Numbered from the stretch's first letter, positions 1 to 27,145 are shown. The stretch: DNA of 64,000 nt from Opitutaceae bacterium (GCA_047602505.1 JASGHD010000001.1:2911929-2975928), one strand, 5' to 3'. The notes: a model not told the origin generated them from the letters alone. Numbers and translations are program-made.

Positions 1-1
1 C

Positions 2-3000
2 GGTCTCGCCTCCACCCAAGTCGCCGCGCTCGCCACGACCCAGCTCGCCGCCCTCGCGCCCGATGCGCTCGCCGGGTTCGCGGCCGAGGATCTGGCCGCT
101 CTCTCCACTGCGCAGCTCACCGCGTTCACCGCCGCGCAATTCGGCGCGCTCACCGAAACGCAGGTCGCCGTCCTTGCACCCGCGCAGATCGCCGCTCTCA
201 CCGCCACCCAGCTCGCCGGCATGGACAGCACGCAGGTCGCCGCCCTCTCCGCCGCCCAGCTCGCCCAGCTTTCGCCCGAGCAACTCACGCTGCTCTCGCT
301 CGCCGGCCTCGACGGCTTCACCCCCGCCAAGATCGCCGCGCTCTCCAGCGCCCAGCTCGGGGCGCTCGGCGCCACGCATCTCGCCAGCCTCGCCGCCACG
401 CAGGTTGCCGCGCTCGCCGCCGCCCAGCTCGCCGCCCTCTCCACCACCCAGCTTAACCAACTTTCTGAGACGGGCATCGCCGCCTTCACCGCCACCCAGA
501 TTGCCGCGCTCACCACCACCCAGCTCGCAGGCTTCTCCACCACGCAGCTCGCCGGCCTCACCGCGGAAGAAGTCGCGGCGCTCGGCGCCACGCAACTCGC
601 CACGCTCTCCACGCGCCAGCTCGCCGCCCTCTCCACCACCGCGGTCGCGGGCCTCACCGCCACGAGTTTCGCCGCCCTCTCGGCCACGCAGCTCGCCGCC
701 TTCAGCTCGACCCAGTTCGGCGCCCTCACCACCGCACAGCTCGCCTCCCTCGCTCCCACCCAGCTCGCCACCCTCGCCGCCACCGAGCTGCGCGGCCTCA
801 CCGAGACGCAGACCGCCGCCCTCTCCACCACCCAGCTCGCCGCCCTCTCGGCCACACAGTTCGCCGCGCTCTCCACGATCGCCATCGCCGGCCTCACCGC
901 CACCCAGCTCGCCGCCCTCTCCACCACCCAGCTCAAAGGCCTCGCCGTCACCGGCCTGGCCGCTCTCACCACGCGCCAGCTCGCCGCCCTCGCCGGCCCG
1001 CAGCTCGCCAGCCTCTCCACGACTCAGCTCCGCGGCCTCACCGCCACCCAGGTCGGTGCGCTCGGTGCCACGCAACTCGCCGCTTTGGGCACGACTCAGG
1101 TCGCCGCCCTCACCGCCACCCAGTTGCAAGGCCTTTCGAGCAACGGCGTCGCCGCGCTGGCGCCCACGCAACTTGCCGCCCTGGCCACGACGCAGCTCGC
1201 CGCTCTCACCACGACCGGCCTCGCCGGGCTCGGCACCGCCGAGCTCGCCGCGCTCTCCACGCGCCAGCTCGCGGCGTTCACCGCCACGCAGTTCGGCGCG
1301 CTCTCGGCCGAGCAACTCGCGGCCCTGAACATCACCCAGATCCGCGTGCTCACCGCCACCGAGATCGCCGGCCTCACCTCGACTCAGCTCGGCAGCCTCG
1401 CGGCCACGCAACTCGCCGCGTTCACCACCACGCAGCTCGCCGCCCTTTCCGCCACCGGCATCAAAGGCCTCACCGCCACCCAGCTCGCCGCCTTCGCGGG
1501 CACCCAGCTGGGCGCGCTCACCGCCGCCGAGTTCGCCGCCCTCTCCACCACCCAGGTCAGCCAGTTGACGGCCACGCAACTCGCCGCCCTCTCCACTACT
1601 CAACTACGCGGTCTGACCACCACCGGGCTCAGCGCCCTCACCGCCACACAATTCGCCGCGCTCTCCACCACCCAGCTCGCGAATCTCTCGCTCGCCCAAT
1701 TCCGCGGTCTCACCAGTGCCGCCGTGGCCGCGCTTTCGACCGCCCAGCTCGCCGCCCTCTCCACCACCCAGCTCGCCAGCCTCTCGACCGCCGCCGTCAC
1801 CGGCCTCTCCGCGACCGATTTTGCGGCGCTCACCGCCCGCCAGCTCGGCGCGTTCACGGCCACGCAGCTCGCCGCCCTCTCCACCGCACAGGTCTCCACG
1901 CTCGACGGCGAACTGCTCGCCGCGTTCACCACCACACAGGTGCGCGGCCTCGTCGACACCCAAGTCGGCGCGCTCAGCACGACACAGCTCGCCGCGCTCA
2001 CGACCAGCCAGCTCGCTTCGCTCTCCACCGGCGGCGCCTCCGGCCTCACCGCCACCCAGCTCACCTCGCTGAGCACCACGCAACTCGGCGCCCTCGCCGC
2101 CACCGAGATCGAGTCCCTTGCCACCGGCGCGCTTGCCGGCCTCTCGACCACCACGCTCGCGGCGTTCACCCGCACCCAGTTCGCCAGCCTCGCGGCCACC
2201 GGGCTCGCGGCGCTCTCCACCACGCAGATCGCCGGCCTCGGCACCGCGCAACTCGAGGTCTTGTCCGCCACCGGCCTAGCCGGCCTCACCTCCCGGCAGG
2301 TTGCCGCCCTCGGGTCGACCCAGCTCGCCACCCTCACCGCCGCGCAACTCGCCGCCCTCTCCACCACCGGATTGCGCGGCCTCACGGCCGCCCAGATCGC
2401 CACGCTCACGACCACGCAACTCGTCGCCCTCGGCGCCGAAGGCGCGGCCGCCCTCTCCGCCACCGCCGTCTCCGGCCTGTCCGCCACCCAGCTCGCATCC
2501 CTCACCACCGCGCAGTTCGTCAGCCTCTCGGCCGACGGCATCTCCGGTCTCGGCACCGCGGAATTCGCGGGCCTGAGCGCCACCCAGCTCGCGTTGCTCA
2601 ACGCCACCGAGCTCGGCGGCCTCACCGCCGCGCAGCTCGCCGCCCTCGCCACGGCCAAATTCGAGACGTTCTCCCCCGACCAACTTTCGCTCCTCTCGAC
2701 TTCCGCCATCTCCGGCCTCACCGCCGCGCAGCTCGCCGCCCTCAACGAGACGCGCCTGGCCGCCCTCGGCTCGACCCAGCTCGCCGCCCTCACCACCGCG
2801 CAGATCGGCCAGCTCACGGCCACCCAGATCGCCGAGCTGGATACCGCGCAGATCGCCGGCTTGGTGCGCCCGCAACTCCGCGCCCTCGGCGCCGAGCAGT
2901 TCGCGGCACTTTCCACCACGCAGATCGCCGCCCTCTCCGGCGCGCAGTTCGCCAACCTCACCTCGACCGAGCTGCGCGCCCTCAGCTCCGCCCAGCTCGG

Positions 3001-3200
3001 CGCCGTCACCGCGGCGCAGCTCGGTGCGCTCGCCGGCCCGCAATTCGGTGCCTTCACCACCACGCAGCTCGACCAGCTCGCGGCCACGCAGCTCACCGAG
3101 ATCACCACGACCACCGTCCAGGCGCTCGAAACAACCACCGTCGCCGCGCTCACCGTGCATCTGCTCGAGTCGCTCACCGCCACCCAGCTCGGCGCGTTCA
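2..3200. repeat. Tandem 24-bp DNA repeat array (minisatellite-like) that encodes the octapeptide repeats.
   Basis: Units like ctcgccgccctctccaccacccag recur with small variations over about 3.2 kb. Confidence 0.7.
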
Positions 3201-3265
3201 CCGGCGATCAGCTCGCGGTGCTCTCGCCCGCGCAGCTCGCCGCCTACCAGAACGCGCGCGCCTGA
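2..3265 (+). CDS. Octapeptide-repeat protein, 5' partial. About 125 tandem copies of (S/T)(T/A)TQ(L/F)(A/G)AL; probably a secreted or surface low-complexity protein.
   Basis: The frame is open from the window start and is the same frame as the listed ORF 221..3265. Units such as STTQLAAL, SATQFAAL, TATQLAAL, STTQLKGL and TTRQLAAL give an 8-residue periodicity. The C-terminus is non-repetitive (…LTVHLLESLTATQLGAFTGDQLAVLSPAQLAAYQNARA). The opposite-strand and off-frame ORFs here are repeat artefacts. Confidence 0.6.
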   Translation, partial: GLASTQVAALATTQLAALAPDALAGFAAEDLAALSTAQLTAFTAAQFGALTETQVAVLAPAQIAALTATQLAGMDSTQVAALSAAQLAQLSPEQLTLLSLAGLDGFTPAKIAALSSAQLGALGATHLASLAATQVAALAAAQLAALSTTQLNQLSETGIAAFTATQIAALTTTQLAGFSTTQLAGLTAEEVAALGATQLATLSTRQLAALSTTAVAGLTATSFAALSATQLAAFSSTQFGALTTAQLASLAPTQLATLAATELRGLTETQTAALSTTQLAALSATQFAALSTIAIAGLTATQLAALSTTQLKGLAVTGLAALTTRQLAALAGPQLASLSTTQLRGLTATQVGALGATQLAALGTTQVAALTATQLQGLSSNGVAALAPTQLAALATTQLAALTTTGLAGLGTAELAALSTRQLAAFTATQFGALSAEQLAALNITQIRVLTATEIAGLTSTQLGSLAATQLAAFTTTQLAALSATGIKGLTATQLAAFAGTQLGALTAAEFAALSTTQVSQLTATQLAALSTTQLRGLTTTGLSALTATQFAALSTTQLANLSLAQFRGLTSAAVAALSTAQLAALSTTQLASLSTAAVTGLSATDFAALTARQLGAFTATQLAALSTAQVSTLDGELLAAFTTTQVRGLVDTQVGALSTTQLAALTTSQLASLSTGGASGLTATQLTSLSTTQLGALAATEIESLATGALAGLSTTTLAAFTRTQFASLAATGLAALSTTQIAGLGTAQLEVLSATGLAGLTSRQVAALGSTQLATLTAAQLAALSTTGLRGLTAAQIATLTTTQLVALGAEGAAALSATAVSGLSATQLASLTTAQFVSLSADGISGLGTAEFAGLSATQLALLNATELGGLTAAQLAALATAKFETFSPDQLSLLSTSAISGLTAAQLAALNETRLAALGSTQLAALTTAQIGQLTATQIAELDTAQIAGLVRPQLRALGAEQFAALSTTQIAALSGAQFANLTSTELRALSSAQLGAVTAAQLGALAGPQFGAFTTTQLDQLAATQLTEITTTTVQALETTTVAALTVHLLESLTATQLGAFTGDQLAVLSPAQLAAYQNARA

Positions 3266-3314
3266 ACCCGCCACCCGCTGAGCCAGCCCGGCCGCCGCGC
3301 GCCCACTTTCCGTC

Positions 3315-5318
3315 ATGTCCCCCGTTTCACCGCCCTCCGCGCTCCTCCAGACGATGGCCCCCGGCTTCGGCGTCACCGAGCTCATCCGAACCGCGGATAC
3401 ACTCAGGCAGACCGGCCGGGCCGCCGCCATCGAGCCGCTCTACGCCACCTGGATCGCGCGCAACTCCACCCACCCGCTCCTCTACGCCATCCTCTTCAAC
3501 TACTCGGTCACCCTCTCCGACGCCGGCAAACTCGACGCCGCCCGCACCGCCCTCGAGCACGCCCTCGCGCTCAACGCCGACTTCCTGCCCGCCCACATCA
3601 ACCTCGGGCGGCTCTATGAACGCCTCGGCATGGTCGGCCTCGCGCTCGTCCAGTGGTCCGCCGTGAGCACCAAGCTCGCCGCCGTCAACGGCCCCGCCAT
3701 CGCGCACAAGACGATGGCGCTCAACCAGAGCGCCCGCGCGCTCGAGGCCGCCGCCCAGGATGAGCCCGCCGAGGATCTCCTCCGCCAGAGCCTCGAGATC
3801 GACCCGCGCCAGCACGAGGTCGCGCAACACTTCCTCGCCCTGCGCCAACGGCAGTGCAAATGGCCCGTCGTGGTTCCGTGGGAACGCGTCGACCGCGAGA
3901 CCCTCCTGCGCGGCATGTCCCCCCTCTCGTTCGCCGCCTACACCGACGACCCGCTGCTCCAGCTCGCCGCCGCCGCGCACTACAACCGCACCGAGATCGG
4001 CGCGCCCGCCTCGCCACCGCCGGCGCTCGATCGCGCCCGCGCGAGCGGCCCGCGTCTGCGCCTCGGCTACGTCTGCTCGGATTTCCGTGAACACGCGCTC
4101 GGCTACCTCCTCACCGAGGTGCTCGGCCTCCACGACCGCGCCCGGGTCGAGGTTTTTGCCTACTACTGCGGCCCCGAGGCCGCCGACCCGCTCCACGCGC
4201 AGTTCCAGACCACCGCCGATCACTGGGTGCCGATCACCGCGCTCGACGATGCCACCGCCGCCGCGCGCATCGCGGCCGACGGCATCCAGATTCTCGTCGA
4301 TCTCAACGGCTACACCCGCGAAGCCCGCGTGAAACTCTTCGCGCTCCGCCCCGCGCCGGTGCTCGTCAACTGGCTCGGCTACCCCGGCACGATGGCGAGC
4401 CCGTATCACCACTACGTCATCGCCGACGACTGGATCGTCCCGCCCGAGCACGAGCTCTACTTCTCCGAGCGCGTGCTCCGCCTGCCGTGCTACCAGCCCA
4501 GCGCGCGCACCCGCACGGTCGCGCCCGAGCCGCCCACGCGCGCCACCGCCGGCCTGCCGGACGACGCGATCGTCTACTGCTGCTTCAACGGCGCGCACAA
4601 GATCACCCGTTTCACGCTCGACCGCTGGCTCTCCATCCTCGAACGCGTGCCGCGCAGCGTGCTCTGGCTGCTCGGCAGTTCCGACGCCGCACAGGAACGC
4701 CTCCGCTCCCACGCCGCGCGCCGCGGGCTCGATCCGCAACGCCTCGTCTTCGCCCCGAAGCTCGCCAACCCGCACCACCTCGCGCGCTACCCGCTCGCCG
4801 ACCTCTTCCTCGACACCACGCCCTACGGCGCGCACACCACCGCCTCCGACGCACTCTGGATGGGCGTGCCCGTGCTCACGCTCAGCGGTCGCTCCTTCGC
4901 CTCGCGCGTCTGCGGCAGCCTCGTGCGCGCCGCGGGCCTGCCCGAACTCGCCTGCACCCACGCGCTCACGTTCCTCGCCACCGCCGTCGATCTCGGCCTG
5001 CACCCGGAAAAACTCCGCGCGCTCCGCGCCCGGCTCGCCGCCAACCGCGACACCTGCACGCTCTTCGACATGCCGCAGCTCGTCGCCCGCCTCGAGGATC
5101 TCTACGCCGAGATGTGGGCCGCTTGTGAAGCCGGACGCCTCCCGCAGCCCGATCTCGCCAACCTCGACGTCTACCTCGAAGTCGGCGCTCAGCTCGACCA
5201 CGAGGAGATCGATGTGCAGGCGATCGACGACTACCACCAGTTCTGGCGCGAACGGCTCCTCCGCCGCCACGCCTTCCGCCCGCTCTCTCCCGACCGCCGT
5301 CTGGTCGACTTCGCCTGA
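3315..5318 (+). CDS. TPR-repeat glycosyltransferase of the O-GlcNAc transferase (GT41/SPINDLY-like) family.
   Basis: The N-terminal half is TPR-like. The C-terminal half carries the OGT catalytic-domain hallmarks: LRLGYVCSDFREHALGYLL, ILVDLNGYT, VLVNWLGYPGT, YCCFNGAHKITRFTLDRW, LFLDTTPYGAHTTASDALWMGVPVLTLSG. Confidence 0.8.
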   Translation: MSPVSPPSALLQTMAPGFGVTELIRTADTLRQTGRAAAIEPLYATWIARNSTHPLLYAILFNYSVTLSDAGKLDAARTALEHALALNADFLPAHINLGRLYERLGMVGLALVQWSAVSTKLAAVNGPAIAHKTMALNQSARALEAAAQDEPAEDLLRQSLEIDPRQHEVAQHFLALRQRQCKWPVVVPWERVDRETLLRGMSPLSFAAYTDDPLLQLAAAAHYNRTEIGAPASPPPALDRARASGPRLRLGYVCSDFREHALGYLLTEVLGLHDRARVEVFAYYCGPEAADPLHAQFQTTADHWVPITALDDATAAARIAADGIQILVDLNGYTREARVKLFALRPAPVLVNWLGYPGTMASPYHHYVIADDWIVPPEHELYFSERVLRLPCYQPSARTRTVAPEPPTRATAGLPDDAIVYCCFNGAHKITRFTLDRWLSILERVPRSVLWLLGSSDAAQERLRSHAARRGLDPQRLVFAPKLANPHHLARYPLADLFLDTTPYGAHTTASDALWMGVPVLTLSGRSFASRVCGSLVRAAGLPELACTHALTFLATAVDLGLHPEKLRALRARLAANRDTCTLFDMPQLVARLEDLYAEMWAACEAGRLPQPDLANLDVYLEVGAQLDHEEIDVQAIDDYHQFWRERLLRRHAFRPLSPDRRLVDFA

Positions 5319-5471: not shown

Positions 5472-7187
5472 TCAATACACGTCGCGCTGGTAGCGCCGGC
5501 TGGCGACGAGCGCATCGACATACTCCGCGGCCGCCTCCGGCGAGCGCCCGCCGGCAGTCGCGACAATCTTCAGCAACGCGGCGTGCACGTCCTTCGCCAT
5601 GCGGCTTGCGTCGCCGCACACATACACGTGCGCGCCAGCCTCGAGCCACGCCCACAGCTCCGCGGCCTGCGCGAGCATCCGGTGCTGCACGTAGACCTTC
5701 TCGTTCTGGTCGCGCGACCACGCGAGATCGAGCCGAGTGAGCAACCCGTCCGCGCGCCACGCGAGCAACTCGTCGCGATAGAGGAAATCGGCCGCCTCGC
5801 GCTGGTCGCCGAAGAAGAGCCAGTTGCGCCCCGCCGCCCCGGTCGCGCGGCGCTCGCCGAGAAACGCGCGGAACGGCGCGATGCCCGTGCCCGGCCCGAT
5901 CATGATCACCGGGGTGGCCCCATCGGCGGGGAGACGGAAGCCGCGGTTCGTGTGCACGTACACGCCGGCCGAGCCGATGTTGAGCGCGCGGTCGGCCAGG
6001 AACGTCGAGGCCACGCCGTGCCGCCGCCGGCCGTGCAGCTCGTAGCGCACGGCGCCGACGGTCAGGTGCACCTGGCCCGGAAACGCCTTGGGCGAGGAGG
6101 AGATTGAATACAACCGCGGTTGCAGCGGCCGCAGGAGCCGCACGAACTCGCCGGGCGCCAGCCGCTTCGCTCCCGGCGCACTGACAGCGTCGATCACATG
6201 GTGCAGCACCGCTGCCGGCGCCAGACCACACGCGGCGAGCAGCTCCGGCGTCGGTTTCCCCAGATCGAAATTGCGCACCAGCGCCGTGCGCAGTGGCAAC
6301 TCGCCGGCGGGCGTGGGCACCGGCTCCTCGCCATCGCACCCCAGCGCCGCCGCGACGGTGTCGGCCAACGCGGGATCGTTGAGCGGCACCAGTCCGAGTG
6401 CGTCGCCCGCTTCGTAGGTGATCCCTGAATCCGCGAGCGAAAACTCGACATGGTTCACCTCCTTTTCCGAGCCGGACCCGCTCAACCGGCGCACCGCGAG
6501 CAGCGGAGCAGGGAAGGGACGCGCGCGGCTGTAGGCGGGCTCGCTCCCCGGCTCCGCGGGCGCGGCCGCCGGGGTTGTCGATGGATTGGCCGGCGTGTCC
6601 CCGGCGAGCACGCCTAGGGCGGCGCCGAGCCACGCCTCGAATTTTGCGCTGTCACCCGCCTCGCACTCGGCGACCGGCAACAGCCGCTTCGCCCCGAGCG
6701 CGCCGAGCCGCTCGTCGAACTCCTTCCCGCACTGGCAGAACTTCGCGTAGTTGCGGTCGCCGAGCGCGCACACGGCGAAGGTGAGCTGCTCGAACCGCGG
6801 GGCCCCGGCGCGGGCGAGCGCGGCGTGCAGGACCTTCGCGTTGTCGGGCGGCTCGCCGTCGCCATACGTGCTCGTGATCACGAGCACGGTCGTCTCCTGC
6901 GCGAGTGCGGCGAGCGCGACTTCGCCCATGTCGCGCACGGTCGGCGCGAACCCGCGTTTCTTCGCTTCCTTGGCAAACTTCTTCGCGAGCCCTTCACACG
7001 TGCCGGTCTGCGATCCGTAGACGACGAGCAGCGTCTTCGCCGGCGCGGGCGGGGCGGCGGGCGCGGGCGGCGCCCCGGTCGCGATTTCCTGGCGACTGTA
7101 GAGGCCGGCGAGGAAGCCGTTGAGCCACGCGCGTTGCTCGGGTGTGAACGGTGCGGTTTCGGGCAGACAGGGGGCGGCGACGGTCAT
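5472..7187 (-). CDS. cysJ: Sulfite reductase [NADPH] flavoprotein alpha subunit, CysJ-like (flavodoxin + FAD/NADPH oxidoreductase).
   Basis: Flavodoxin-like stretch LLVVYGSQTGTCEGLAKKFAKEAKK…VITSTYGDGEPPDN. FAD motif RLYSISSSPK. NADPH motif GPGTGIAPFRAF. C-terminal YVCGDASRMAKDV…YQRDVY. Confidence 0.8.
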   Translation of the reverse strand: MTVAAPCLPETAPFTPEQRAWLNGFLAGLYSRQEIATGAPPAPAAPPAPAKTLLVVYGSQTGTCEGLAKKFAKEAKKRGFAPTVRDMGEVALAALAQETTVLVITSTYGDGEPPDNAKVLHAALARAGAPRFEQLTFAVCALGDRNYAKFCQCGKEFDERLGALGAKRLLPVAECEAGDSAKFEAWLGAALGVLAGDTPANPSTTPAAAPAEPGSEPAYSRARPFPAPLLAVRRLSGSGSEKEVNHVEFSLADSGITYEAGDALGLVPLNDPALADTVAAALGCDGEEPVPTPAGELPLRTALVRNFDLGKPTPELLAACGLAPAAVLHHVIDAVSAPGAKRLAPGEFVRLLRPLQPRLYSISSSPKAFPGQVHLTVGAVRYELHGRRRHGVASTFLADRALNIGSAGVYVHTNRGFRLPADGATPVIMIGPGTGIAPFRAFLGERRATGAAGRNWLFFGDQREAADFLYRDELLAWRADGLLTRLDLAWSRDQNEKVYVQHRMLAQAAELWAWLEAGAHVYVCGDASRMAKDVHAALLKIVATAGGRSPEAAAEYVDALVASRRYQRDVY

Positions 7188-7208
7188 GGCGGAAACAGTT
7201 CGATGGTT

Positions 7209-9020
7209 TCAGGAAAACAGCTCCTGCAGCTCGCCCACGGAGTGGCGGCGCGCCCACAGCACGAAGGTCTCGCCCGGCTCGTGGCGCTGTTGGTAGGTGG
7301 CGAGGATCTTCGCCACCAACGCGGGCAACTCCGCGGCGTCGACCCCGCGGAAAATCTCGCGCGCGATGCCCTGCTCGGGGCCCATGCCGCCGCCGAGCAC
7401 CACGTGGTAGCCCTCGCGGCCGTCGGCGAGCTTCACGCCCACGCCGCCGATGTCGCCACAGTAGTGTTGCGCGCAGGAGTTCGGGCAGCCGGTGAGGTGG
7501 ATGTTCACCGGGAAATCGGTCGTGAGGCCCTGCGCGGCGAGATGTTTGGCGACGGCGGCGGCGTGGCCCTTTGTGTCGGCCGCGGCGTACTTGCAGCCCT
7601 TGCTGCCGGTGCACGCGACGAGGCAGCCGGTCGTGTTGCCCGGATCCGTGAAGAGCCCGGCGGAGCGCAACGCCCGCTCGACCGTGCCGACGTACGCGTC
7701 CGGCACGTGCGGGATGAGCAGATTCTGCCACACGGTGAGCCGCACCTCGCCCTGGCCGTAGTGCTCCGCCACATCCGCGATCCGCCGCAGTTGCCGCGCG
7801 CTCAACCGCCCGACCGGCACGCCGACGCCGATGTAGTTCAGGTGCGACTGGCTCTGCCGGCCGACGCCGAGGTGCGCGTGCTTGACCGGTGGATGCCGCG
7901 CCTCGCACCCCTCGGGCGCGAGGCGGCGCAGCGGGAACGCGAGCTTGCGTTCCGTCTCGGCGAGAAACTTCTCCACGCCCCATTTGCCGAGCAGATATTT
8001 GAGCCTCGCCTTCTTGCGGTCGGTGCGGTCGCCGTTCTCGCGGAACACATGGAGCATCGCCGCCGCGACCGGCACGAGTTCGTCGGCAGAGAGCAGCAGG
8101 CCCGTGTCGCGCGCGAAATCGCCGTGGCCGGTGATCCCGCCGAGCTGCACGCGGAAGTACACGCCCGGCGCGAGCCCGTCGGCCGCGCCGCCGAGCTTAG
8201 CGAGCGAGGCGGGCGTGACGCGCACGGCGAAGAAGCCGATGTCGTTCGTGTCGGCGGCGGACGAGATCGCGCCGCCCGAGTCGAAGGCGATGTTGAACTT
8301 CCGTGGGAGCCCGAAGAGATCGCGGTGGTTGAGGATGTAGTGGTGCAGCGCGCGCGCGTACGGCCGCACATCGATGATCTCGGAGCGGTCGAAGCCGGAG
8401 GTCGGTGTCGCGGTGATGTTGCGCACGTTGTCCGCCCCGGCGCCGCGCGAGGTGAGCCCGAGATCCTGCAGGCGCGTGAGCACGTCGACGATCGTTTGCG
8501 GCTTCAGCTCCCGGAACTGCAGGTTGGCGCGCGTGGTGATGTCGGCGCCGCCGTTGCCCAGTTCCGCCAGGTCGGCGAGCCCGCGCAACTGCGCCGCGCG
8601 TAGCTCTCCGGCGGGTACACGGATGCGCAGCATGAAGCTGTTCTGCGTGGGCGCCACGTAGAACAGCCCGAAGAACTTGAAGCGGAAGGTGTCCGCCTCG
8701 TCGGGAAACTTCCCGGTCGCCGCGTGCGCGACGAGCTTGTCCCAGATGTCGAGGCCGTGCTGCTCGCGTTTCCACTTCTCCGGTTTCGAGAGCTCGGAGA
8801 GCGGCGTGCCGAAGACGGTCTCCTCCGGCGCCTCGGCGGCTGGGTCGGCGAGGTTCCCACCCGCGGCCGACGCCGGTTCGCCGGTGAGCCGACCGGCGGC
8901 ATCGCGACCGACAAACGGCAGCCCGCGTGCGGCGATCTCGCCGGCGAGAAACCCTTCGAGGAATTGTTTCTGCTCGGCGGTGAAGCCGGCGGATGGAGCG
9001 GCGAGAGTCGGTGCGGACAT
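7209..9020 (-). CDS. cysI: Sulfite/nitrite reductase haemoprotein beta subunit (CysI/NirA family; sirohaem-[4Fe-4S]).
   Basis: Nitrite/sulfite reductase ferredoxin-like half-domains and the cysteine cluster motif TGCPNSCAQHYCGDIGGVGVK. It sits directly upstream of the cysJ-like gene on the same strand. The substrate (sulfite or nitrite) cannot be decided from sequence alone. Confidence 0.75.
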   Translation of the reverse strand: MSAPTLAAPSAGFTAEQKQFLEGFLAGEIAARGLPFVGRDAAGRLTGEPASAAGGNLADPAAEAPEETVFGTPLSELSKPEKWKREQHGLDIWDKLVAHAATGKFPDEADTFRFKFFGLFYVAPTQNSFMLRIRVPAGELRAAQLRGLADLAELGNGGADITTRANLQFRELKPQTIVDVLTRLQDLGLTSRGAGADNVRNITATPTSGFDRSEIIDVRPYARALHHYILNHRDLFGLPRKFNIAFDSGGAISSAADTNDIGFFAVRVTPASLAKLGGAADGLAPGVYFRVQLGGITGHGDFARDTGLLLSADELVPVAAAMLHVFRENGDRTDRKKARLKYLLGKWGVEKFLAETERKLAFPLRRLAPEGCEARHPPVKHAHLGVGRQSQSHLNYIGVGVPVGRLSARQLRRIADVAEHYGQGEVRLTVWQNLLIPHVPDAYVGTVERALRSAGLFTDPGNTTGCLVACTGSKGCKYAAADTKGHAAAVAKHLAAQGLTTDFPVNIHLTGCPNSCAQHYCGDIGGVGVKLADGREGYHVVLGGGMGPEQGIAREIFRGVDAAELPALVAKILATYQQRHEPGETFVLWARRHSVGELQELFS

Positions 9021-9044
9021 GGCGGGAAGAGAAGGTTGCGCCGC

Positions 9045-9929
9045 TCAGCTCCGGACCGGCTCGGCGGCCGCCTCGACGGGAGGCAGCGCCGCACCACCGC
9101 CGATCGCGGCGACATTCGTGGCCGCGGCGGCCGCGGGAGCGACGGTCGCTGCCGGCCGGTAGGTCCAGTAGAGGAAGAGGCCGGTGAAGAGGAAGCCGCC
9201 CACGAAATTGCCCAGCGTCACGGGAATCTGGTTCCAGATCCACCAGTCGGCGATCGAGACCTTCGCGCCGAGCAGCATGCCGGCGGGGATCACGAACATG
9301 TTCACGACCGAGTGTTCGAACCCTTGGCCGAAAAAGGTCAGGATCGGCAGCCACATCGCGACGATTTTGCCCACGGTCGAGGAGCTCGTCATCGCCATCA
9401 CGACACCGAGACAGACCATCCAGTTGCATAGCACCGCCTTCACGAAGGCCGTGGTCCAACCCGCGCCGCCATGCGCCGCGAAGGCCGTGGTCTTCGCCTC
9501 CGCGATCGCGACCAGGCGCGGCCCGATCCCGCCGGCGACTTCGCTGCCGCAGCTCGTGAGCACGAGCCAGAGCAGCGCCGCATACGCGAGGCTGCCGATC
9601 AGATTGCCCAAGAACACCCAGGCGAGATTGCGCGCCACCGTGCCGAGCGGTCGGCGCCCGGCGACGCCGGCAAGCGACACGATCGCGAAACTGCCGGTGA
9701 CCAGCTCGAGGCCGAGCAGCACGATCATCACAAAGCCGACGGGGAAAACGAGCGCGCCCACGATCGGTGTGGTCTGGGCGGTGGTCGTGATGGCGAGGCT
9801 GGTGGCGAAGCCCAGCAAGGCGCCGGAGAGAAAGCCGCGGATGAGCAGGTCGCGGATCGGCAGGCCGGCCTTGGCCTCGCCGGCGGCGACCATCGCCCGC
9901 GCGATATCGGAGGGTTTGACGTAGTCCAT
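9045..9929 (-). CDS. Formate/nitrite transporter (FNT) family channel; a possible nitrite or hydrosulfide channel.
   Basis: Start MDYVKPSDIARAMVAAGEAKAGL. It has six TM helices with FNT signatures (LLIRGFLSGALLGF…, FEHSVVNMFVIPAGM). It is the first gene of an operon with the haemoprotein and flavoprotein genes. Confidence 0.8.
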   Translation of the reverse strand: MDYVKPSDIARAMVAAGEAKAGLPIRDLLIRGFLSGALLGFATSLAITTTAQTTPIVGALVFPVGFVMIVLLGLELVTGSFAIVSLAGVAGRRPLGTVARNLAWVFLGNLIGSLAYAALLWLVLTSCGSEVAGGIGPRLVAIAEAKTTAFAAHGGAGWTTAFVKAVLCNWMVCLGVVMAMTSSSTVGKIVAMWLPILTFFGQGFEHSVVNMFVIPAGMLLGAKVSIADWWIWNQIPVTLGNFVGGFLFTGLFLYWTYRPAATVAPAAAAATNVAAIGGGAALPPVEAAAEPVRS

Positions 9930-10181
9930 GTGACGCTGAGTTGGTGGTTTTGCGCAGCGGGCGGAGTGGGCTCCCGAAGCCCCGGACCGAGCAATGCCGA
10001 TGCCATGGGCAGCCGCACCTGCGTGGTAGTGAGTGCCTTCCTCCGCGCGCGCGCCGCCATAAGTTGCGCGCATACCTACGAGTGCCGCTCGCGTCTCCGG
10101 CCTGCCGACTTCTCCCGGATACACGCGGGTGGTGGCGGTTGCGCGCTGGCGGCGGCGAGGGAAACCGTTCAACTGCGTCGC

Positions 10182-11954
10182 ATGCCGCGTTCGCCCTGGT
10201 CCGCGTATCTCGACGGCCGCTTCGATGCCGCGCACCCGCGCCGCACGCTCTGGCGCCTGCTACTCGCCCAGCGCCGCGACCTCGGCGCCGCCACGCTCTA
10301 CTACATCGTGAAACAGGCGCCGGGCTGGGCGCTCCCGCTCGCCACCGGCACGATCATCGACGCGCTCACACCGCCGCGCGCGCCCACCGCGGGCCGCACC
10401 GTCGCGCTCACGCTCGGCATCTTCGTTGCCGTGCTCGTGCAGAACATCGTCTTCCACGGCTTCTTCGTGAAACACATGAGCCGCGCGCTCCGGCAGCTCA
10501 CGTTTCTCCTGCGCAGCTCCCTCGTCGAACGCGTCCAGCAGCTGTCCTTCTCCTTCCTCGACGAGACGCAGAGCGGCGTGCTCCAGGCGAAGCTCTTCCG
10601 CGATGTCGACAGCATCGAAGGCCTCTGCCGCCAGCTCTTCCACAGCGGCCTCAACGCCGTGCTCGTCATCGCCGCCGCCGTCGCGATCTCCCTCTCCGTG
10701 CAGCCGTGGATGACGCTCTACTTCGCCGTCACCGTGCCCGTGGGCATCGGGCTGTTGCAACTTTTCCACCACCAGTTCCAGAAACACTTCGCCGCCTACC
10801 GCGAACAGACCGAGCAGATGAACGCCCGCATGGGCGAGATGCTCGGCATGCTCGCGCTCACGCGTGCCCACGGCGTCGAGCACGAGGAGACGCGCCAGGT
10901 GCGCTCGCATCTCCACCGCCTGCGCAAGACCGGCCTGCGGCTCGACATCGTCACCGAGCTCTTCGCCGCCAGCTCATATGTGTGTTTCAACCTCCTCATG
11001 CTGCTCTGCCTCGGCTTCGCCGCGTGGTTGGTTCTCAGCGACCGTCTCAGCGTCGGGCAGGCGGTGATGTTTCACACGTACTTCGGCATGCTCGTCGGCG
11101 CCGTGGGGCAGATCATGGGTGTGTTCCCCGCGCTGGCGCAGGGCGTCGACTCCGTGCGCTCGCTGGGCGAACTCATGGCCACGCCCGAGGTCGAGGTCTT
11201 CGACGGCAAGCCGGCCGCGCCGCCGCTGCGCGGCGAGTTCGTCCTCAGCGGCGTCGCCTTCGCGTACCCGAAGACCGGATCCGCGGCGGTCGCCGCGCTC
11301 AACCTTCATGTGCGCGCCGGCGAGACGATCGCCATCGTCGGCGAATCCGGCTCCGGCAAATCCACGCTGCTCTCGCTCCTCCTCGGCTTCCGCCACCCGA
11401 GCGCCGGCCGCATCTCCGTCGACGGCCTCGACCTCGAGTCGCTCGACCTGCGCGCGTACCGCCGGCAGGTCGGCGTCGTGCCGCAGACGACCGTGCTCTT
11501 CTCCGGCTCGATCCGCGATAACCTCACCTACGGCCTCGAGGACTGGAGCGACGCCCAGCTCTGGGACATCCTCGCCCGCACCACGCTGGCCGACTTCGTG
11601 CGCTCGCTCCCGCAGGGGCTCGACACGCTCGTGGGCGAGCGCGGCGCGAAACTCAGCGGCGGCCAGCGCCAACGCCTCGCCATCGCCCGCGCGCTCGTGC
11701 GCGACCCGCGGATCATCTTCCTCGACGAAGCCACCTCCGCACTCGACACCGAGTCCGAGCGCCTCGTCCAGCAGGCGATGGAGCAGCTCACCACCGGCCG
11801 CACGACCTTCGTGATCGCGCACCGTTTCTCCACGATCCGCCACGCCCACCGCATCGTCGTCATGAAGCAGGGCAGGGCCGTCGAGATCGGCACGCACGAC
11901 GAACTCATGGCTCGCAACGGCGCCTACGCCGCCCTCCGCCGGCTGCAGGTGTGA
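10182..11954 (+). CDS. ABC transporter, fused permease/ATP-binding (type-I exporter, MsbA-like).
   Basis: Internal start MPRSPWSAYL. Six-TM exporter domain. Walker A GESGSGKST, signature LSGGQRQRLAIARAL, Walker B IIFLDEATSALD. Confidence 0.85.
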   Translation: MPRSPWSAYLDGRFDAAHPRRTLWRLLLAQRRDLGAATLYYIVKQAPGWALPLATGTIIDALTPPRAPTAGRTVALTLGIFVAVLVQNIVFHGFFVKHMSRALRQLTFLLRSSLVERVQQLSFSFLDETQSGVLQAKLFRDVDSIEGLCRQLFHSGLNAVLVIAAAVAISLSVQPWMTLYFAVTVPVGIGLLQLFHHQFQKHFAAYREQTEQMNARMGEMLGMLALTRAHGVEHEETRQVRSHLHRLRKTGLRLDIVTELFAASSYVCFNLLMLLCLGFAAWLVLSDRLSVGQAVMFHTYFGMLVGAVGQIMGVFPALAQGVDSVRSLGELMATPEVEVFDGKPAAPPLRGEFVLSGVAFAYPKTGSAAVAALNLHVRAGETIAIVGESGSGKSTLLSLLLGFRHPSAGRISVDGLDLESLDLRAYRRQVGVVPQTTVLFSGSIRDNLTYGLEDWSDAQLWDILARTTLADFVRSLPQGLDTLVGERGAKLSGGQRQRLAIARALVRDPRIIFLDEATSALDTESERLVQQAMEQLTTGRTTFVIAHRFSTIRHAHRIVVMKQGRAVEIGTHDELMARNGAYAALRRLQV

Positions 11955-12010: not shown

Positions 12011-12394
12011 ACGTTGTCCGAGGTGGGCGGCGTTGCCCCCAACGCCGTCGCGCGCCCGAGCCGCAGAAGACAGGCCTGCGCGCACGGCTGACTTGCCCTT
12101 CCGCCACGGGCCGAGTCCACAACCCGCTTGAGGGCAAGCGGGTCCACCCGCAAGCGAGCAGGCCCGCCTTCCGGATTAGCGTCAATGAGCGTCCATTAGC
12201 GGTTCCTCCCTTCGTCTCGCCCGCCTCCGTCCGACTTTCTGCTGAAATCTTCTAAGAAACCCGCGGCTCGCGTGTCTTCATGGGGTGGAGCCTCCACGGC
12301 TCCGTTTTCCGCCGCCATGGACGCCCCGGCCACCGCCCAAGTTTTCTCGCCACCTCCCGGTATTTCCGGTCTGGTGGCGGCGCAAACCCCGCGC

Positions 12395-12901
12395 ATGGAT
12401 CCGGAGCCACCCACCTTGGCTGCGTTGTTCGAAAAGGAGGAGAGCGGACTCCTGCGCTACGCACTCGGGCTCACGGGTCGCCGCTCTGTCACCGAGGAGT
12501 TGGTACAGGAGGCGTTTCTCCGCCTCCACCAGTCGTGGGCCGAGGTCGAGAACCCTCGCGCTTGGCTCTACCGCACCGTCCGCAACCTCTCCCTCAACCA
12601 CCTCCGCGACCACCCCGCCGAGGCCGAGCTCGATCCCGACACCGCCACCGGCGACGCGCGCTCCGCCGCCGAGCGCCTCGGCCGCGACGAGGCCGTGGGC
12701 ACCGTCCGGCTGCTCCTCGCCGAGCTGCCCGCCGCCGACCGCCGCCTCATCCACCTCAAGTACCACGAGGAGCTCCAGTATCAGGAGATCGGACGCCGCA
12801 CCGGCCTGAGCACCGGCAACGTCGGTTTCCGCCTGCACCACCTCCTCAAATCGCTCGCCGACGCGCTTCGCCGCGCCGGCATCGAAGGAAGCGAGGGCTG
12901 A
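12395..12901 (+). CDS. ECF (sigma-70 family) RNA polymerase sigma factor.
   Basis: Region-2 motif EELVQEAFLRLHQSW…YRTVRNLSLNHLRD and region-4 HTH YQEIGRRTGLSTGNVGFRLHHL. An alternative start exists at 12272. Confidence 0.75.
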   Translation: MDPEPPTLAALFEKEESGLLRYALGLTGRRSVTEELVQEAFLRLHQSWAEVENPRAWLYRTVRNLSLNHLRDHPAEAELDPDTATGDARSAAERLGRDEAVGTVRLLLAELPAADRRLIHLKYHEELQYQEIGRRTGLSTGNVGFRLHHLLKSLADALRRAGIEGSEG

Positions 12902-12903
12902 AC

Positions 12904-15624
12904 ATGAATTCCGCCAACCAACCGCCCGCTCCGCACCGCCCGCCCGACGACCAGCTCGAGGAACGCCTCGTCGCCTGGGTCCTCGGCGAGGCGTCCGACT
13001 TCGAGATCGCCGCGCTCCAGGCCGCCGTCGCCGCCCGCCCCGAGCTCGCCGCCTTCAAACGCCGCATCGAAGCCGTCCACGGTCTCGTCGCCACCGCCGC
13101 GCGCCCCGAGGCCGCGCCGCTCCGCCTTTCCCCCGACCGCCGCGCCAAACTCCTCGCCGTGATCGGCTCCGCCTCCGCTGTAGCCGGTGTCGCCGACCCC
13201 GGCCAATCCTCCGCCGCTCCCAAGCCCGCCGCTTCCACGAAACCCTCCGCCGTGCGTCTGCCGCGCCCAACCGAGCGCCCGTGGTGGCGCAACGACTGGT
13301 TCTACTCCGCCGCCGCCTGCGTGGTGATCAGTATTGGCGGACTCTGGATGCTAAGCACGGTGCCGAAGGAGAGTGAGACTGCGGCCAAGGTTGCGATGTT
13401 CGATTTGGCTGTTCCGATGGAGAGCCAAGAGAACGACGAGGCGATTGGCGCTCTGCCGGAGCCGATGAACACGGTCGGCTATTCGGAGATCACCACGGTG
13501 ATTAAGCCGGCCCCGTTGGTATTCAACGCGCCGCCAGTGGTGCCGAAGTCGACGCGTTCGCTCTCGGTGCAACCCAGCATGACCTTCGGCATGAATGCAC
13601 CGGCTGCCGCTGCGCCTCGTGCGGCTTGGTCGGCTCAACCGCAGCGCCAAGTCGAGATCGCCAGTGCGCGTGGCTATGCTGGAACGACCGATGAGGGGTC
13701 GACCGGGGTGCTGGACAAGTTCGAGGTCTCGGCGGATGCGAACTTCGGATATCAGGCGTCACAGACTATGGCGGGCACGCGCATTCGCACAGAACTCAAG
13801 GATGTCGCTTCCCCGATCTCGGGCGTCTCTAGCCAATTTCTGAAAGACACCGGCGCGACCAACACCGACTCGCTCTTGGGCTACAGCTCAAACACGGGCG
13901 CTGGTGGCCTTGCAGGAAACTATGCGGGGAAATCCGCTGCCTCCCGCGACAGCTTCCTCTCCAAGCGCAAGACCGAGCGCAACGGTGGCAAGGGTGGGGC
14001 TCCAGCTCCGGCCGCGCCGGTGGTCGGTGGCGAAGCAGAGGAAGTCGTGGTGCTCTCGCCATTCGAGGTCTCGCGTTCTCACGACTATGGCTACCTAGGC
14101 GGCAATCGTCCGGCGAAGCGTCCCAAGCACTCTGCATCCTCGGCGACCACGGCCGGCATGGGCCCGGGCGGCCTCGATCAAAACCAAGTGCTCCCGCCCG
14201 CGGCGTCCACCACGTCCACTCCGTCCACCCAGTCCACCGCCGATTCCGACAAACCCCTCCCGCGCCCCGCCCAGAAGCCGCTCCCGCCGCCTGCCGCTGA
14301 TGAAACCAGCGCCGCGCAGGAGCCCGTCTCCACGTTCTCGCTCCACGTACGCGACGCCTCGTTCAAGCTCGCGCTGGCCGCGCTCGCTGCCGGCCGCGTA
14401 CCCGATCCGGCCTCGATCCGCCCCGAGGAGTTCTACAACGCCTTCGACTACGGCGACCCGGCGCCGGGTGCGGGAGAAAAAGTCTCCTGCCGCGTCGAGC
14501 AGTCGGCGCATCCGTTCGCGCAGCAGCGCAACCTCGTGCGCATCGCCGTGCGCGTGCCGGCGACCGGTCGCGGCAGCGGCACGCCGCTCAACCTCACCGT
14601 GCTCCTCGACACCTCCGGCTCGATGGAGCGCCCCGACCGCCGCGCCGCCGTGCGCGCCGCGTTGGCCACGTTGGTCGGACTGCTCGGGCCGAACGACCGG
14701 CTCACGCTCATCGGCTTCGCGCGCCAGCCGCGCCTGCTCGCCGAGTCGTTCGATGGCGCTCACGCCAGCCAGGCGCTCGGTCTGCTCGACTCCACGCCCG
14801 CCGAGGGCGGCACCAACCTGGAAGAGGCGCTCAAGCTCGGCGGTGAGCTCGCCCGACGCCTCTTCGCCGAGGCCGCGCAGAACCGCATCGTGCTCCTTAC
14901 CGACGGCGCCGCCAACCTCGGCAACGCCGAGCCGGAGCGCCTCGCCGCCGCCATCGAGACGCTGCGCAGCCAGCGCATCGCGTTCGACGCCTGCGGCGTG
15001 GGCCTCGAGGGCGTCGAGGACGAGATGCTCGAGGCGCTCACCCGCAAGGGCGACGGCCGCTACTACGTGCTCGATTCGCCCGAGGCGGCCGACGCCGGTT
15101 TCGCGCACCAGCTCGCCGGCGCATTCCGCCCCGCCGCCGAGAACGTGAAGCTTCAGGTGCGTTTCAACCCGGCGCGCGTTGGCCGCTACCGGCTCGTCGG
15201 CTTCGAGAAACACCGCCTGCGCGAGGACGATTTCCGCAACGACGCCGTCGACGCCGCCGAGCTCGCCGCCGAGGAGGCCGCCGTGGCCGTGTACGAAGTC
15301 GAGGCGCTCCCGCAGGGCGAGGGCGAGCTTGGCGAGGTCTTCGTCCGCTTCCGCGACGCCGCGTCGAAGACCATGGTCGAGCGCTCGTGGACGTTGCCCT
15401 ACGAGTCGCGCGCCGCGGCCTTCGACCGCGCCTTGCCCAGTCTCCAGCTTGCCGGCACCGCCGCCGCGCTCGCCGAGAAACTCCGCGGTGGCCCCGCCGG
15501 CGACCGCGTCGACCTCGACGCCCTCGCACCGATCGTGAACGCCCAGCGCGCCCGCCGCCCCGACGACAAGCGCATCCAGGACCTCGCCACGCTGTTCGAG
15601 CAGGTTCGGAAGATGAAGAAATGA
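12904..15624 (+). CDS. Anti-sigma factor fused to a von Willebrand factor type-A (VWA) domain, YfbK-like (906 aa).
   Basis: The start is 2 bp after the sigma-factor stop. N-terminal anti-sigma region, then one TM helix (WFYSAAACVVISIGGLWMLSTV), a long Pro/Ala/Ser-rich linker, and a VWA domain (LNLTVLLDTSGSMERPDRR…GGTNLEEAL…IVLLTDGAANLG) with a YfbK-like C-terminal extension. Confidence 0.75.
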   Translation: MNSANQPPAPHRPPDDQLEERLVAWVLGEASDFEIAALQAAVAARPELAAFKRRIEAVHGLVATAARPEAAPLRLSPDRRAKLLAVIGSASAVAGVADPGQSSAAPKPAASTKPSAVRLPRPTERPWWRNDWFYSAAACVVISIGGLWMLSTVPKESETAAKVAMFDLAVPMESQENDEAIGALPEPMNTVGYSEITTVIKPAPLVFNAPPVVPKSTRSLSVQPSMTFGMNAPAAAAPRAAWSAQPQRQVEIASARGYAGTTDEGSTGVLDKFEVSADANFGYQASQTMAGTRIRTELKDVASPISGVSSQFLKDTGATNTDSLLGYSSNTGAGGLAGNYAGKSAASRDSFLSKRKTERNGGKGGAPAPAAPVVGGEAEEVVVLSPFEVSRSHDYGYLGGNRPAKRPKHSASSATTAGMGPGGLDQNQVLPPAASTTSTPSTQSTADSDKPLPRPAQKPLPPPAADETSAAQEPVSTFSLHVRDASFKLALAALAAGRVPDPASIRPEEFYNAFDYGDPAPGAGEKVSCRVEQSAHPFAQQRNLVRIAVRVPATGRGSGTPLNLTVLLDTSGSMERPDRRAAVRAALATLVGLLGPNDRLTLIGFARQPRLLAESFDGAHASQALGLLDSTPAEGGTNLEEALKLGGELARRLFAEAAQNRIVLLTDGAANLGNAEPERLAAAIETLRSQRIAFDACGVGLEGVEDEMLEALTRKGDGRYYVLDSPEAADAGFAHQLAGAFRPAAENVKLQVRFNPARVGRYRLVGFEKHRLREDDFRNDAVDAAELAAEEAAVAVYEVEALPQGEGELGEVFVRFRDAASKTMVERSWTLPYESRAAAFDRALPSLQLAGTAAALAEKLRGGPAGDRVDLDALAPIVNAQRARRPDDKRIQDLATLFEQVRKMKK

Positions 15625-26167: not shown

Positions 26168-27043
26168 CTAGTAGGAAACGGTCCGGCCCAGATAGTTCAG
26201 CATCCAGATCTCCTTCCACACGCGGTAGCGACCTTCCTTGGAGATCTTGCCAAACTCCTCGCGATCTTGGTGCGAGTGGAGGAAACCGAGCTCGGTGTTC
26301 ACTTTCTCGAGCTGCCCCTGCTGGCGGTTGAGATCCTCGAGCGGCTCAGTGGCCCAGGGAAGCAATGCCGAATCCGTGGTCCGGATACGACGGCGATGCC
26401 GGGCCACCAGGCGCGGAAGGCTGCGGATCCACGGGCGCCGCTCCACCATCCAGTTCTCCGGATAGAACCCGCCGAAAGGCAGGTGGAGATTGTCGGTCAC
26501 GTAGCGCACGTCGTTCTCCGTGCGCGAGGAGAGGGTGTAGTAGAGCGCGATCGCGCCGGTGGGCTGGGGAATGAAGGCGACCTGCAAGCGGAGCTGGTCC
26601 GAAGCGTCCTGGTAAACGGAAAGCCGGAGGAACATCCCCGGGGCGATCTCCGCCTTGAGCGATTGCGCGAGCTGGAATTTCTCGCGGCGCAGCCACTCGC
26701 GGATGGCGAAGAGCCGGCGCTGGGTGGGCCATTCCTCCCCGCTGCTGTTCACGACGAAGCGGGGAAACAGCGGCAATGGGCTGAGACTTAGCGCGCGGAT
26801 CGCCAGCCAGTGGTAGACCGACTCCACGAGAAACCAGCCGAGGAACGCCAGCACGGCCGTCGCCCAGAACGGCCGCTCCGTCCAGCCGAACGCCTCCGCG
26901 AGGTAGGCGACGCCGAGCGAGAACAGGATCCAGCGCACCCAGCGGTTCGCGATCGTGACGATCGGCAGCAACACCCGCGAGTTCAGCAGGTGGAGCAGGA
27001 GCGAGATCGCGGAGAAGCCGACGATGATCTGGCCAATTTCCAT
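26168..27043 (-). CDS. Hypothetical integral membrane protein.
   Basis: Start MEIGQIIVGF. Several predicted TM helices. No recognisable family. Confidence 0.5.
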   Translation of the reverse strand: MEIGQIIVGFSAISLLLHLLNSRVLLPIVTIANRWVRWILFSLGVAYLAEAFGWTERPFWATAVLAFLGWFLVESVYHWLAIRALSLSPLPLFPRFVVNSSGEEWPTQRRLFAIREWLRREKFQLAQSLKAEIAPGMFLRLSVYQDASDQLRLQVAFIPQPTGAIALYYTLSSRTENDVRYVTDNLHLPFGGFYPENWMVERRPWIRSLPRLVARHRRRIRTTDSALLPWATEPLEDLNRQQGQLEKVNTELGFLHSHQDREEFGKISKEGRYRVWKEIWMLNYLGRTVSY

Positions 27044-27145
27044 CGCGGGGAGCGGAACAAACACGCCTGCGGAGCGAAAGCGGGAAATCGCCCCGACAAA
27101 AAAGCCGCCGGCGCAAAAACCGGCGGCTGGAAAGGGCGGGAGCGA

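Follow-up and report, generated by a model that had tools for sequence, protein, structure and literature searches.

A giant octad-repeat protein of the ALTTAQ family and its O-GlcNAc-transferase-like gene neighbour in an Opitutaceae bacterium

Introduction

A well-known case of a glycosyltransferase of family GT41 encoded beside a very large, exported, repeat-rich protein is the HMW1C/HMW1 pair of Haemophilus influenzae. HMW1C, an N-glycosyltransferase without TPRs, modifies N-x-S/T sites, and the adhesin HMW1 leaves the cell by two-partner secretion. Here we analyze a related arrangement at the beginning of a stretch of 64,000 nucleotides from an Opitutaceae bacterium (GCA_047602505.1 JASGHD010000001.1:2911929-2975928), in the following called the window: the 3' part of a gene for a giant protein built from eight-residue repeats (octads), followed by a gene for a GT41 enzyme. 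For both systems it is proposed that the protein is modified in the cytoplasm first and exported afterwards. Unlike HMW1C the window enzyme carries TPRs and resembles O-GlcNAc transferase (OGT); it gives only 23 bits on the N-glycosyltransferase model, and the repeat protein has no more than 5 N-x-S/T sequons in the window.

The archetype of the bacterial OGT-like enzymes is XcOGT (XCC0866, structure 2JLB) of Xanthomonas campestris, in which TPRs are fused to a GT41 catalytic domain as in the window enzyme. In the study of that structure no activity was seen with bacterial lysates, and OGT-type enzymes take extended peptides (PMC2556091). Another described system is FlmG of Caulobacter crescentus, a soluble protein whose N-terminal TPR region binds the substrate and whose C-terminal GT-B part O-glycosylates the Sec-independent flagellins in the cytoplasm (PMC7591256). 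The window enzyme has the same layout of TPR plus glycosyltransferase, and several of the related gene cassettes have flagellar genes as neighbours. The sugar which FlmG transfers to flagellins is pseudaminic acid, and the two enzymes were compared by description only.

For the repeat protein the closest described system is HeliScrew4 (9ZEM), a designed 8-mer alpha-helical screw with a crystal structure at 2.2 Å. The design rules for such screws call for apolar residues in the core, for S/T/D/N at the N-cap and for Pro at N1; the fold was called "dark matter", near-absent from nature, with 7QLR as the one natural example in the PDB (bioRxiv 10.64898/2025.12.04.691947).

The feature in the window is, taken alone, an ordinary member of a catalogued and unstudied repeat family, cut by the window edge. 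What goes beyond the catalogue is its sequence tie to HeliScrew, the almost constant association with an OGT-like GT41 gene and the exact conservation of the repeat number. The reading which we favour, with a probability of about one half, is that the protein is a rod of conserved length which would receive O-linked sugars in the cytoplasm and would leave the cell by a route that needs no Sec signal, probably type I secretion.

The repeat gene and its product

The open reading frame (ORF) at the window edge (Table 1) can be written in rows of eight as 135 complete octads and a tail of 7 residues, in one register throughout and with no indels. An earlier reading of the window, made from the sequence only, had described tandem octads over more than 1000 residues and estimated about 125 of them; the period, the length and the regularity hold, and the count is 135. 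The octad consensus is A-L-(S/T)-(T/A)-T-Q-L-A, numbered A1-L2-S3-T4-T5-Q6-L7-A8. Column 1 is A in 71 and G in 30 of the 135 octads, and column 2 is L in 117 and F in 15 (98% L/F). Column 3 has 47 S, 47 T and 21 A (74% S/T/D/N), column 4 has 49 A, 48 T and 8 P and is the only column with Pro, and column 5 has 79 T and 30 A. Column 6 is Q in 93 octads (69%), G in 13 and E in 9; column 7 is L in 80 (59%), V in 19, I in 17 and F in 16 (98% L/V/I/F), and column 8 has 84 A, 16 G and 9 R. The Q and L residues called invariant in the sequence-only reading are thus only strongly preferred, as seen for Q6 and for the first of its two leucines in column 7, while the substitutions which it listed, F, G and K/R/E, all occur.

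Residues eight positions apart are identical with a frequency of 0.384 compared to 0.147 ± 0.010 after shuffling. The highest value (0.453) is found at a lag of 32, and the Gly at position 1 mostly returns in each fourth octad. At the DNA level TRF finds a period of 24 bp and its multiples. The part of the protein encoded in the window consists of 25% A, 19% L, 17% T, 9% Q, 7.5% S and 7% G; it has 5.6% charged residues, no Cys, an isoelectric point (pI) of 4.5 and a Ser+Thr content of 25%.

Species-representative genomes were scanned with the product of the downstream GT41 gene, which gave a set of related loci, numbered from L001 onward. L001 is from an Opitutaceae metagenome-assembled genome and has a homolog of the GT41 gene product at 93% identity. 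Upstream of it lies the ortholog of the repeat gene (L001:1116-9944), coding for 2942 amino acids, in which 354 of 366 octads score in one register; its N-terminus is MSIPSISTYSRQAIANLTTTELQGL..., and the octads occupy the sequence between about residue 17 and ~5 residues before the end. The window protein is 84% identical to residues 1856-2941 of the ortholog in a gapless alignment of 1086 residues, and Q6 is replaced at just 2 aligned positions. The sequence-only reading had placed the 5' end of the gene outside the window, and the alignment, which begins only at ortholog residue 1856, agrees with this. By this comparison the window ORF is the C-terminal third of an octad-only protein of ~2900 amino acids.

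The 499 nucleotide differences from L001 are distributed 150/53/296 over the three codon positions. In the window frame 239 codon differences are synonymous only and 176 are non-synonymous; the other five frames have 22-162 synonymous ones. Since synonymous changes dominate only in the + frame this is the coding one, and the substitution pattern marks the repeat gene as a real gene under purifying selection. Two antisense ORFs of 533 and >340 amino acids, both with a GC content at third codon positions (GC3) >0.9, were rejected as shadows of the repeat; their substitution pattern relative to the ortholog is non-coding.

About 35 complete homologs start with M-(S/T)-I-S-S-L-S-A-A-Q-I-A-A-L, and their octads begin directly after the Met and run to ~5 residues before the stop codon. 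A signal peptide, which the sequence-only reading had placed, if there was one, outside the window, is found neither in the L001 ortholog nor in these ~35 homologs, and no transmembrane segment was seen in the complete homologs. The homologs share a C-terminal motif, ...F-T-x-T-Q-V-x-S-(M/L)-x-x-x-Q-I-x-A-Y-L.

The repeat family

The window protein matches the Pfam family PF20080 (ALTTAQ_rpt) with 449 bits (E 4.8e-138, 36 stretches; gathering cut-off 26.4 bits), and the N-terminal 800 amino acids of the L001 ortholog give 304.6 bits. The motif A-L-T-T-A/T-Q is common to the family and the window protein. This is at variance with the suggestion that the repeat looks unlike the known classes; a profile match to a repeat family had been named as a result which would refute it, and by the letter such a match was obtained. 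The family is an obscure one, and our literature search found no publication on ALTTAQ or on PF20080 as a Pfam family. None of the NCBIfam families matches the repeat protein. Apart from ALTTAQ_rpt the Pfam scan of the repeat region gave just a few compositional matches, either below threshold or without stretches.

With a 200-residue block of the window protein as the query, an exhaustive phmmer search against 1.84 billion cluster representatives gave 2,522 matches at E<=1e-3, of which 151 reach E<=1e-30; many of the matching proteins are 2000-7466 amino acids long. Many of the PF20080 members found are proteins or fragments of 250-525 amino acids with other domains (a D/G-rich "SPM" segment, DUF1217, TPR). 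The window protein differs from these in its size of ~2900 amino acids, in having octads only and in belonging to a subset tied to a GT41 gene. Some of the shorter ALTTAQ relatives bear a C-terminal D/G-rich segment, and the sources annotate them as "heme utilization protein".

It should be mentioned that one protein of 472 amino acids from a JGI metagenome (P0003) has an N-terminal TPR region joined directly to ALTTAQ repeats. This TPR region resembles the N-terminus of the ALTTAQ-linked GT41 enzymes (motif ...QKACRWPVY...); the protein is a natural fusion or an artefact of assembly or frameshift.

Predicted fold

Residues 161-360 of the window protein were modelled with AlphaFold2 on an alignment made from other blocks of that protein. 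MAFFT aligned these overlapping blocks by their true offset and not in register; the model was confident nonetheless (pLDDT 93.9, pTM 0.83). It contains 25 helices of 4-6 residues each with a spacing of exactly 8, and DSSP assigns three coil residues (A1-L2-S3) and five helix residues (T4-A8) to each octad and no strands. The sequence-only reading had asked for such a prediction and had proposed a long beta-solenoid or a helical fibre. The elongated solenoid is retained in an alpha-helical form, whereas the beta form is not supported by the model, which has short helices only; an assignment to the ice-nucleation or beta-solenoid classes was rejected because of the all-helical prediction and the lack of any such match. 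The last 239 residues, modelled as a single sequence, keep the octad pattern and have in addition an irregular helix of 12 residues and a terminal helix of 11 residues, in a prediction where 1 of 5 models was confident (pLDDT 85 compared to 44-56 for the others).

Within the PDB only 9ZEM is a significant match by sequence (E 4e-16 with phmmer, 5.3e-24 with a profile); it is 44% identical to residues 215-332 of the window protein over 118 amino acids without gaps. HeliScrew4 itself gives 135.7 bits on the ALTTAQ_rpt model; it is by sequence an ALTTAQ repeat, and an uncharacterised Pfam repeat is in this way tied to a solved fold. The octad columns follow the HeliScrew rules, with columns 2 and 7 apolar, S/T/D/N in column 3 and Pro only in column 4. 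HeliScrew4 and the window protein, the latter as modelled, have in common the period of 8, the logic of core, N-cap and N1 and a unit consisting of a helix and a linker. They differ in that HeliScrew4 is a designed, charged (E/K/D/R-rich) monomer of 120 residues, while the window-type protein is ~25 times longer, near-uncharged and coated with Thr, Ser and Gln. The PDB sequence search gave no relation between 7QLR and the window protein, and a Foldseek search against the PDB gave mesothelin-like alpha-solenoids as the best matches (TM <= 0.43).

The octad protein is consequently predicted to fold as an alpha-helical screw solenoid. Each octad would contribute one helix of a turn and a half (T4-A8) and a linker of three residues (A1-S3). 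L2 and L7 would form a continuous hydrophobic core, S or T at position 3 would cap the helix, with Pro sometimes at position 4, and T4, T5 and Q6 would coat the surface. The result would be a single uncharged, hydroxyl-rich rod with a length set by the number of octads. There are probably ~4 octads (32 residues) per superhelical turn, since the super-period of 32 residues would fit such a geometry; an 8-mer screw is characterized by helices that wind clockwise about a single axis with 2.5-4 units per turn. If the prediction is correct, bacteria use the published "dark matter" fold on a scale of 2000-7000 residues, and with 2,522 matching cluster representatives, many of them thousands of residues long, the claim that the screw is near-absent from nature needs revision.

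The repeat protein has weak matches to leucine-rich repeats in the PDB and Pfam (IGFALS with E 1.2e-8, VLRs, LRR_EndoS), which arise because three octads make up 24 residues with evenly spaced Leu. A leucine-rich repeat was rejected: the motif LxxLxLxxN/C is absent, there is no conserved N/C column and no strand in the AlphaFold2 model, and the matches are compositional.

Constancy of the repeat number

A model suggested in the sequence-only reading is that the 24-bp minisatellite is a hotspot which changes its copy number by slipped-strand mispairing, as in phase- or length-variable surface proteins. The tandem 24-bp periodicity of the DNA is what this model would need, complete homologs from deep lineages range from 420 to 3248 amino acids, and distant pairs differ mostly by the gain or loss of entire octads (8, 16, 24, 32 and 56 residues). 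The 24-nt units are, however, only 60% identical on average (59% for neighbouring units), exact direct repeats reach 34 nt at most, the two copies of the longest being 1.3 kb apart, and there is not a single indel in the 1086 residues aligned to the 84% identical ortholog.

Repeat numbers, which that reading had proposed to compare among strains, were compared across seven species-level genomes (L049, L051, L054, L059, L060, L061 and L063; Terricaulis, Hyphomonadaceae). The protein is in each of them exactly 2104 amino acids long, corresponding to 263 octads, and six comparisons, each against L051, are gapless at 57-75% identity. Similarly the proteins of L066 and L068 are both 1449 amino acids long with no indel between them. 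Length is therefore kept within lineages, which is the reverse of a contingency locus, and we regard copy-number change by slippage as extremely improbable. An exact repeat number at such low identity is unusual for a tandem-repeat protein. The octad number seems, judged from these alignments, to be under strong selection, which suggests selection on the length of the rod.

The glycosyltransferase partner

A promoter-like or terminator-like site was sought in the 49 nt which separate the repeat gene from the GT41 gene, and none was found; the two genes are probably co-transcribed. The closest solved relatives of the GT41 enzyme are XcOGT (E 5.7e-86, 38% identity) and human OGT (E 2.5e-79). In the alignment to XcOGT the stretches ...SDF.EH..., CFN..K and HTTASDALW are retained, and the window enzyme has ~70 extra N-terminal residues in common with other ALTTAQ-linked GT41 enzymes. 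No record identical to its exact sequence was found.

The pairing of the two genes is widespread. Among the 77 related loci with usable upstream sequence 61 have an octad-repeat ORF directly upstream of the GT41 gene on the same strand, with a median of 168 nt separating the end of this ORF from the beginning of the GT41 match, and several of the remaining 16 have such an ORF elsewhere in the locus. Cultured carriers include Asticcacaulis sp. YBE204, Siculibacillus lacustris SA-279, Insolitispirillum peregrinum, Neoroseomonas rubea and Methylobacterium carpenticola. Some loci have the order repeat-GT41-repeat(-repeat) or GT41-ABC-MFP-repeat-GT41-repeat (MFP, membrane fusion protein). In the betaproteobacterium "Ca. 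Accumulibacter" a distant ALTTAQ protein is followed by a TPR-GT41 enzyme which is 41% identical to the window enzyme over the full length. A census of 107 immediate neighbours gave no conserved third partner gene; the commonest were epimerase/UDP-xylose synthase (9), autotransporter (5) and HlyD (4) genes, and methyltransferase genes recur as well.

We thus propose a two-gene module consisting of the repeat gene and a dedicated TPR-GT41 gene. The lack of activity of XcOGT on bacterial lysates, the 25% Ser+Thr of the repeat protein and its five sequons together point to O-glycosylation by the neighbouring GT41 enzyme. Because OGT-type enzymes bind extended peptides the modification would precede folding, that is, the enzyme would O-glycosylate the exposed Ser and Thr residues of the still-unfolded chain in the cytoplasm.

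A different relation between the two proteins has to be considered, in which the repeat protein serves the enzyme as a partner, adaptor or decoy and some other target, such as flagellin or pilin, is modified. Adjacency of genes never proves that an enzyme and its neighbour's product are enzyme and substrate, and in Synechococcus a GT41 homolog is reported to be required for pilin glycosylation (bioRxiv 10.1101/2021.07.06.449578). The XcOGT gene, moreover, follows hemA-prfA and has no ALTTAQ neighbour; this counts against the favoured reading and makes the link between GT41 and ALTTAQ clade-specific. We nevertheless find this relation improbable, considering that the pairing persists in 61 of the 77 loci while all other neighbours vary, that several loci have two GT41 genes together with two or three repeat genes, and that the repeat protein offers hundreds of Ser and Thr residues.

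With the repeat protein as the favoured target, there is a candidate substrate for the bacterial OGT-like enzymes; the study of their structural archetype XcOGT had yielded no bacterial substrate (PMC2556091). A bolder proposal, which we make tentatively, is that one clade of the bacterial OGT-like GT41 enzymes has its long-sought native substrates in the ALTTAQ giants, and that the product would be a glycosylated screw rod of defined length (e.g. exactly 263 octads throughout one bacterial family) serving as a secreted fibre or a molecular ruler.

Possible sugar supply and export routes

Of 80 loci 18 contain a gene for UDP-glucuronate decarboxylase (UDP-xylose synthase, UXS; E 1.9e-121 to human UXS1), which in several cases is the immediate neighbour of the GT41 gene. 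These neighbours hint at a pentose donor or at further steps in building a glycan.

Genes of a type I secretion system (T1SS), a HlyB-type ABC transporter and a HlyD adaptor, are found in ~13 of the 80 loci. In seven loci (L016, L019, L042, L043, L058, L066 and L068) they lie directly upstream on the same strand, and in ~6 more they are nearby. The locus-linked ABC transporter matches TIGR01846 over its full length with 584 bits, and the adaptor matches TIGR01843 with 300.9 bits, above the cut-off. The repeat protein has traits of a T1SS substrate, as its homologs lack a signal peptide and the part in the window has no Cys and an acidic pI. The D/G-rich C-terminal segment of other ALTTAQ proteins is a further point for export. 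A low-charge, Cys-free and acidic composition is typical of secreted repeat proteins. Type I secretion is favoured because its genes share an operon with the module in several lineages, because a Sec signal is absent and because of this composition. The product would most likely leave the cell by such a system, encoded beside the module in some lineages and in the Opitutaceae bacterium, if it exists, elsewhere in the genome, and it would form a glycosylated surface or extracellular fibre outside the cell.

Several observations weigh against this reading. The adjacency of T1SS genes is limited to the ~13 of 80 loci, and neither a HlyB/HlyD pair nor a UXS gene was found in the 64 kb of the window. 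The repeat protein has no RTX or HemolysinCabind match, and octads instead of GGxGxD repeats extend to its end; RTX repeats are common in T1SS substrates, but they are not obligatory. Its C-terminus is predicted to be helical and not disordered. A literature search for GT41 together with type I secretion gave nothing relevant. Two window genes were considered as T1SS parts and rejected (Table 1): the ABC gene is MsbA-like, stays below the cut-off, lacks the N-terminal HlyB domain and is 30% identical to the locus-linked transporters, and the HlyD-like gene belongs to an unrelated TetR/ABC/ABC-2 efflux operon.

Another reading is that the protein is never exported and acts as a cytoplasmic scaffold, ruler or spacer of defined length, glycosylated or not. 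No secretion genes were found in the window, the protein has neither signal peptide nor transmembrane segment, the partner enzyme is of a soluble, cytoplasmic type, and a constant 2104 amino acids in seven genomes would suit a spacer as well. On the other hand T1SS genes are in the same operon in several lineages, the C-terminal segments of other ALTTAQ proteins look calcium-binding and extracellular, and the composition is that of secreted repeat proteins. We judge a purely cytoplasmic role to be unlikely, though a live alternative.

Further evidence which does not fit type I secretion comes from the flagellar genes. Genes for flagellin, FlaF/FlbT, FlgE or FlgK directly flank the cassette in at least 7 loci (L012, L025, L028, L030, L047, L049 and L070), and two other ALTTAQ architectures are found within late flagellar clusters; a flagellar route or role is therefore a real alternative. 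One of them is a DUF1217+ALTTAQ fusion downstream of flgE-flgK-flgL-flbT-fliC-flaF, the other is the Accumulibacter order fliC-flaG-fliD-fliS-fliT-fliK-[ALTTAQ]-x-[ALTTAQ]-[TPR-GT41]. This model assumes that the protein is exported by the flagellar type III apparatus, for which a Sec signal is likewise not required, or that it takes part in assembly or length control, and that the GT41 gene belongs to a flagellar glycosylation island. An exact length of 263 octads would suit a ruler, and FlmG is a TPR plus GT-B enzyme whose flagellin substrates receive their sugar in the cytoplasm, ahead of export (PMC7591256). The flagellar genes are, however, adjacent in <10% of the loci, and none was found among the window ORFs scanned. 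T1SS genes adjoin more often and in the same operon, and the Pfam scan of the repeat region shows no similarity to flagellin or hook-protein termini. A substrate of 2000-3200 amino acids would also far exceed the known flagellar substrates. We consider the flagellar model unlikely and place export by type I secretion before it.

The Accumulibacter locus (L083, JDSS02000037.1) deserves a description of its own. The segment 6491-11668, at the end of the flagellar cluster, codes for ALTTAQ proteins of 314 and 517 amino acids and the TPR-GT41 enzyme, and the cassette is followed by a methyltransferase gene and two ORFs with no Pfam match.

Other features of the window

The coordinates of the features are collected in Table 1. 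The presence of dnaN indicates that the window is chromosomal.

Table 1. Positions of the repeat gene, its partner and other features in the 64,000-nt window
Feature	Position	Strand	Remarks
Antisense ORF in the repeat	1-1023	-	>340 amino acids; rejected
Giant ALTTAQ octad-repeat gene, 3' part	2-3265	+	1087 codons (stop-free 2-3262) and TGA (3263-3265); 135 octads, then a short cap helix at the C-terminus (predicted)
Antisense ORF in the repeat	1600-3201	-	533 amino acids; rejected
Spacer, repeat gene to GT41 gene	3266-3314	+	49 nt
TPR + GT41 (O-GlcNAc-transferase-like) glycosyltransferase gene	3315-5318	+	667 amino acids; Glyco_transf_41 E 6.5e-84 and TPR matches
Convergent operon, CysJ-like flavoprotein + NIR_SIR sulfite/nitrite reductase + formate/nitrite transporter	5472-10235	-	Abuts the GT41 gene
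Formate/nitrite transporter gene	9045-10235	-	
MsbA-like ABC ORF	9471-11954	+	Rejected as T1SS part
vWA/YfbK_C protein gene	12280-15624	+	1114 amino acids
Large ORF	15875-22942	+	2355 amino acids
ORF	26168-27145	-	Coding-like GC3, no Pfam match
dnaN	27146-28333	-	
ORF	38150-40438	+	Coding-like GC3, no Pfam match
ORF	40873-41703	-	Coding-like GC3, no Pfam match
HlyD-like gene	47115-48251		Rejected as T1SS part
TIR-domain protein gene	56344-57393	-	Pfam TIR_2 E 2.8e-25
ORF	57394-58683	-	429 amino acids, no match in any library

An NIR_SIR gene like that of the operon next to the GT41 gene is also present near the Accumulibacter cassette, which is probably a coincidence. The MsbA-like ABC ORF has an N-terminal extension of ~250 amino acids without homology; the true start is probably further downstream, since the extended part and the formate/nitrite transporter gene of the opposite strand overlap. 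The large ORF directly after the vWA/YfbK_C gene is non-repetitive and has no match in Pfam or NCBIfam; its product begins with a signal-peptide-like stretch, contains hydrophobic segments near residue 1100 and ends in a hydrophobic anchor. The TIR-domain protein has weak PADLOC matches to PDC-S66, bSEFIR and ThsB, and its gene and the neighbouring 429-residue ORF may be a defence gene pair.

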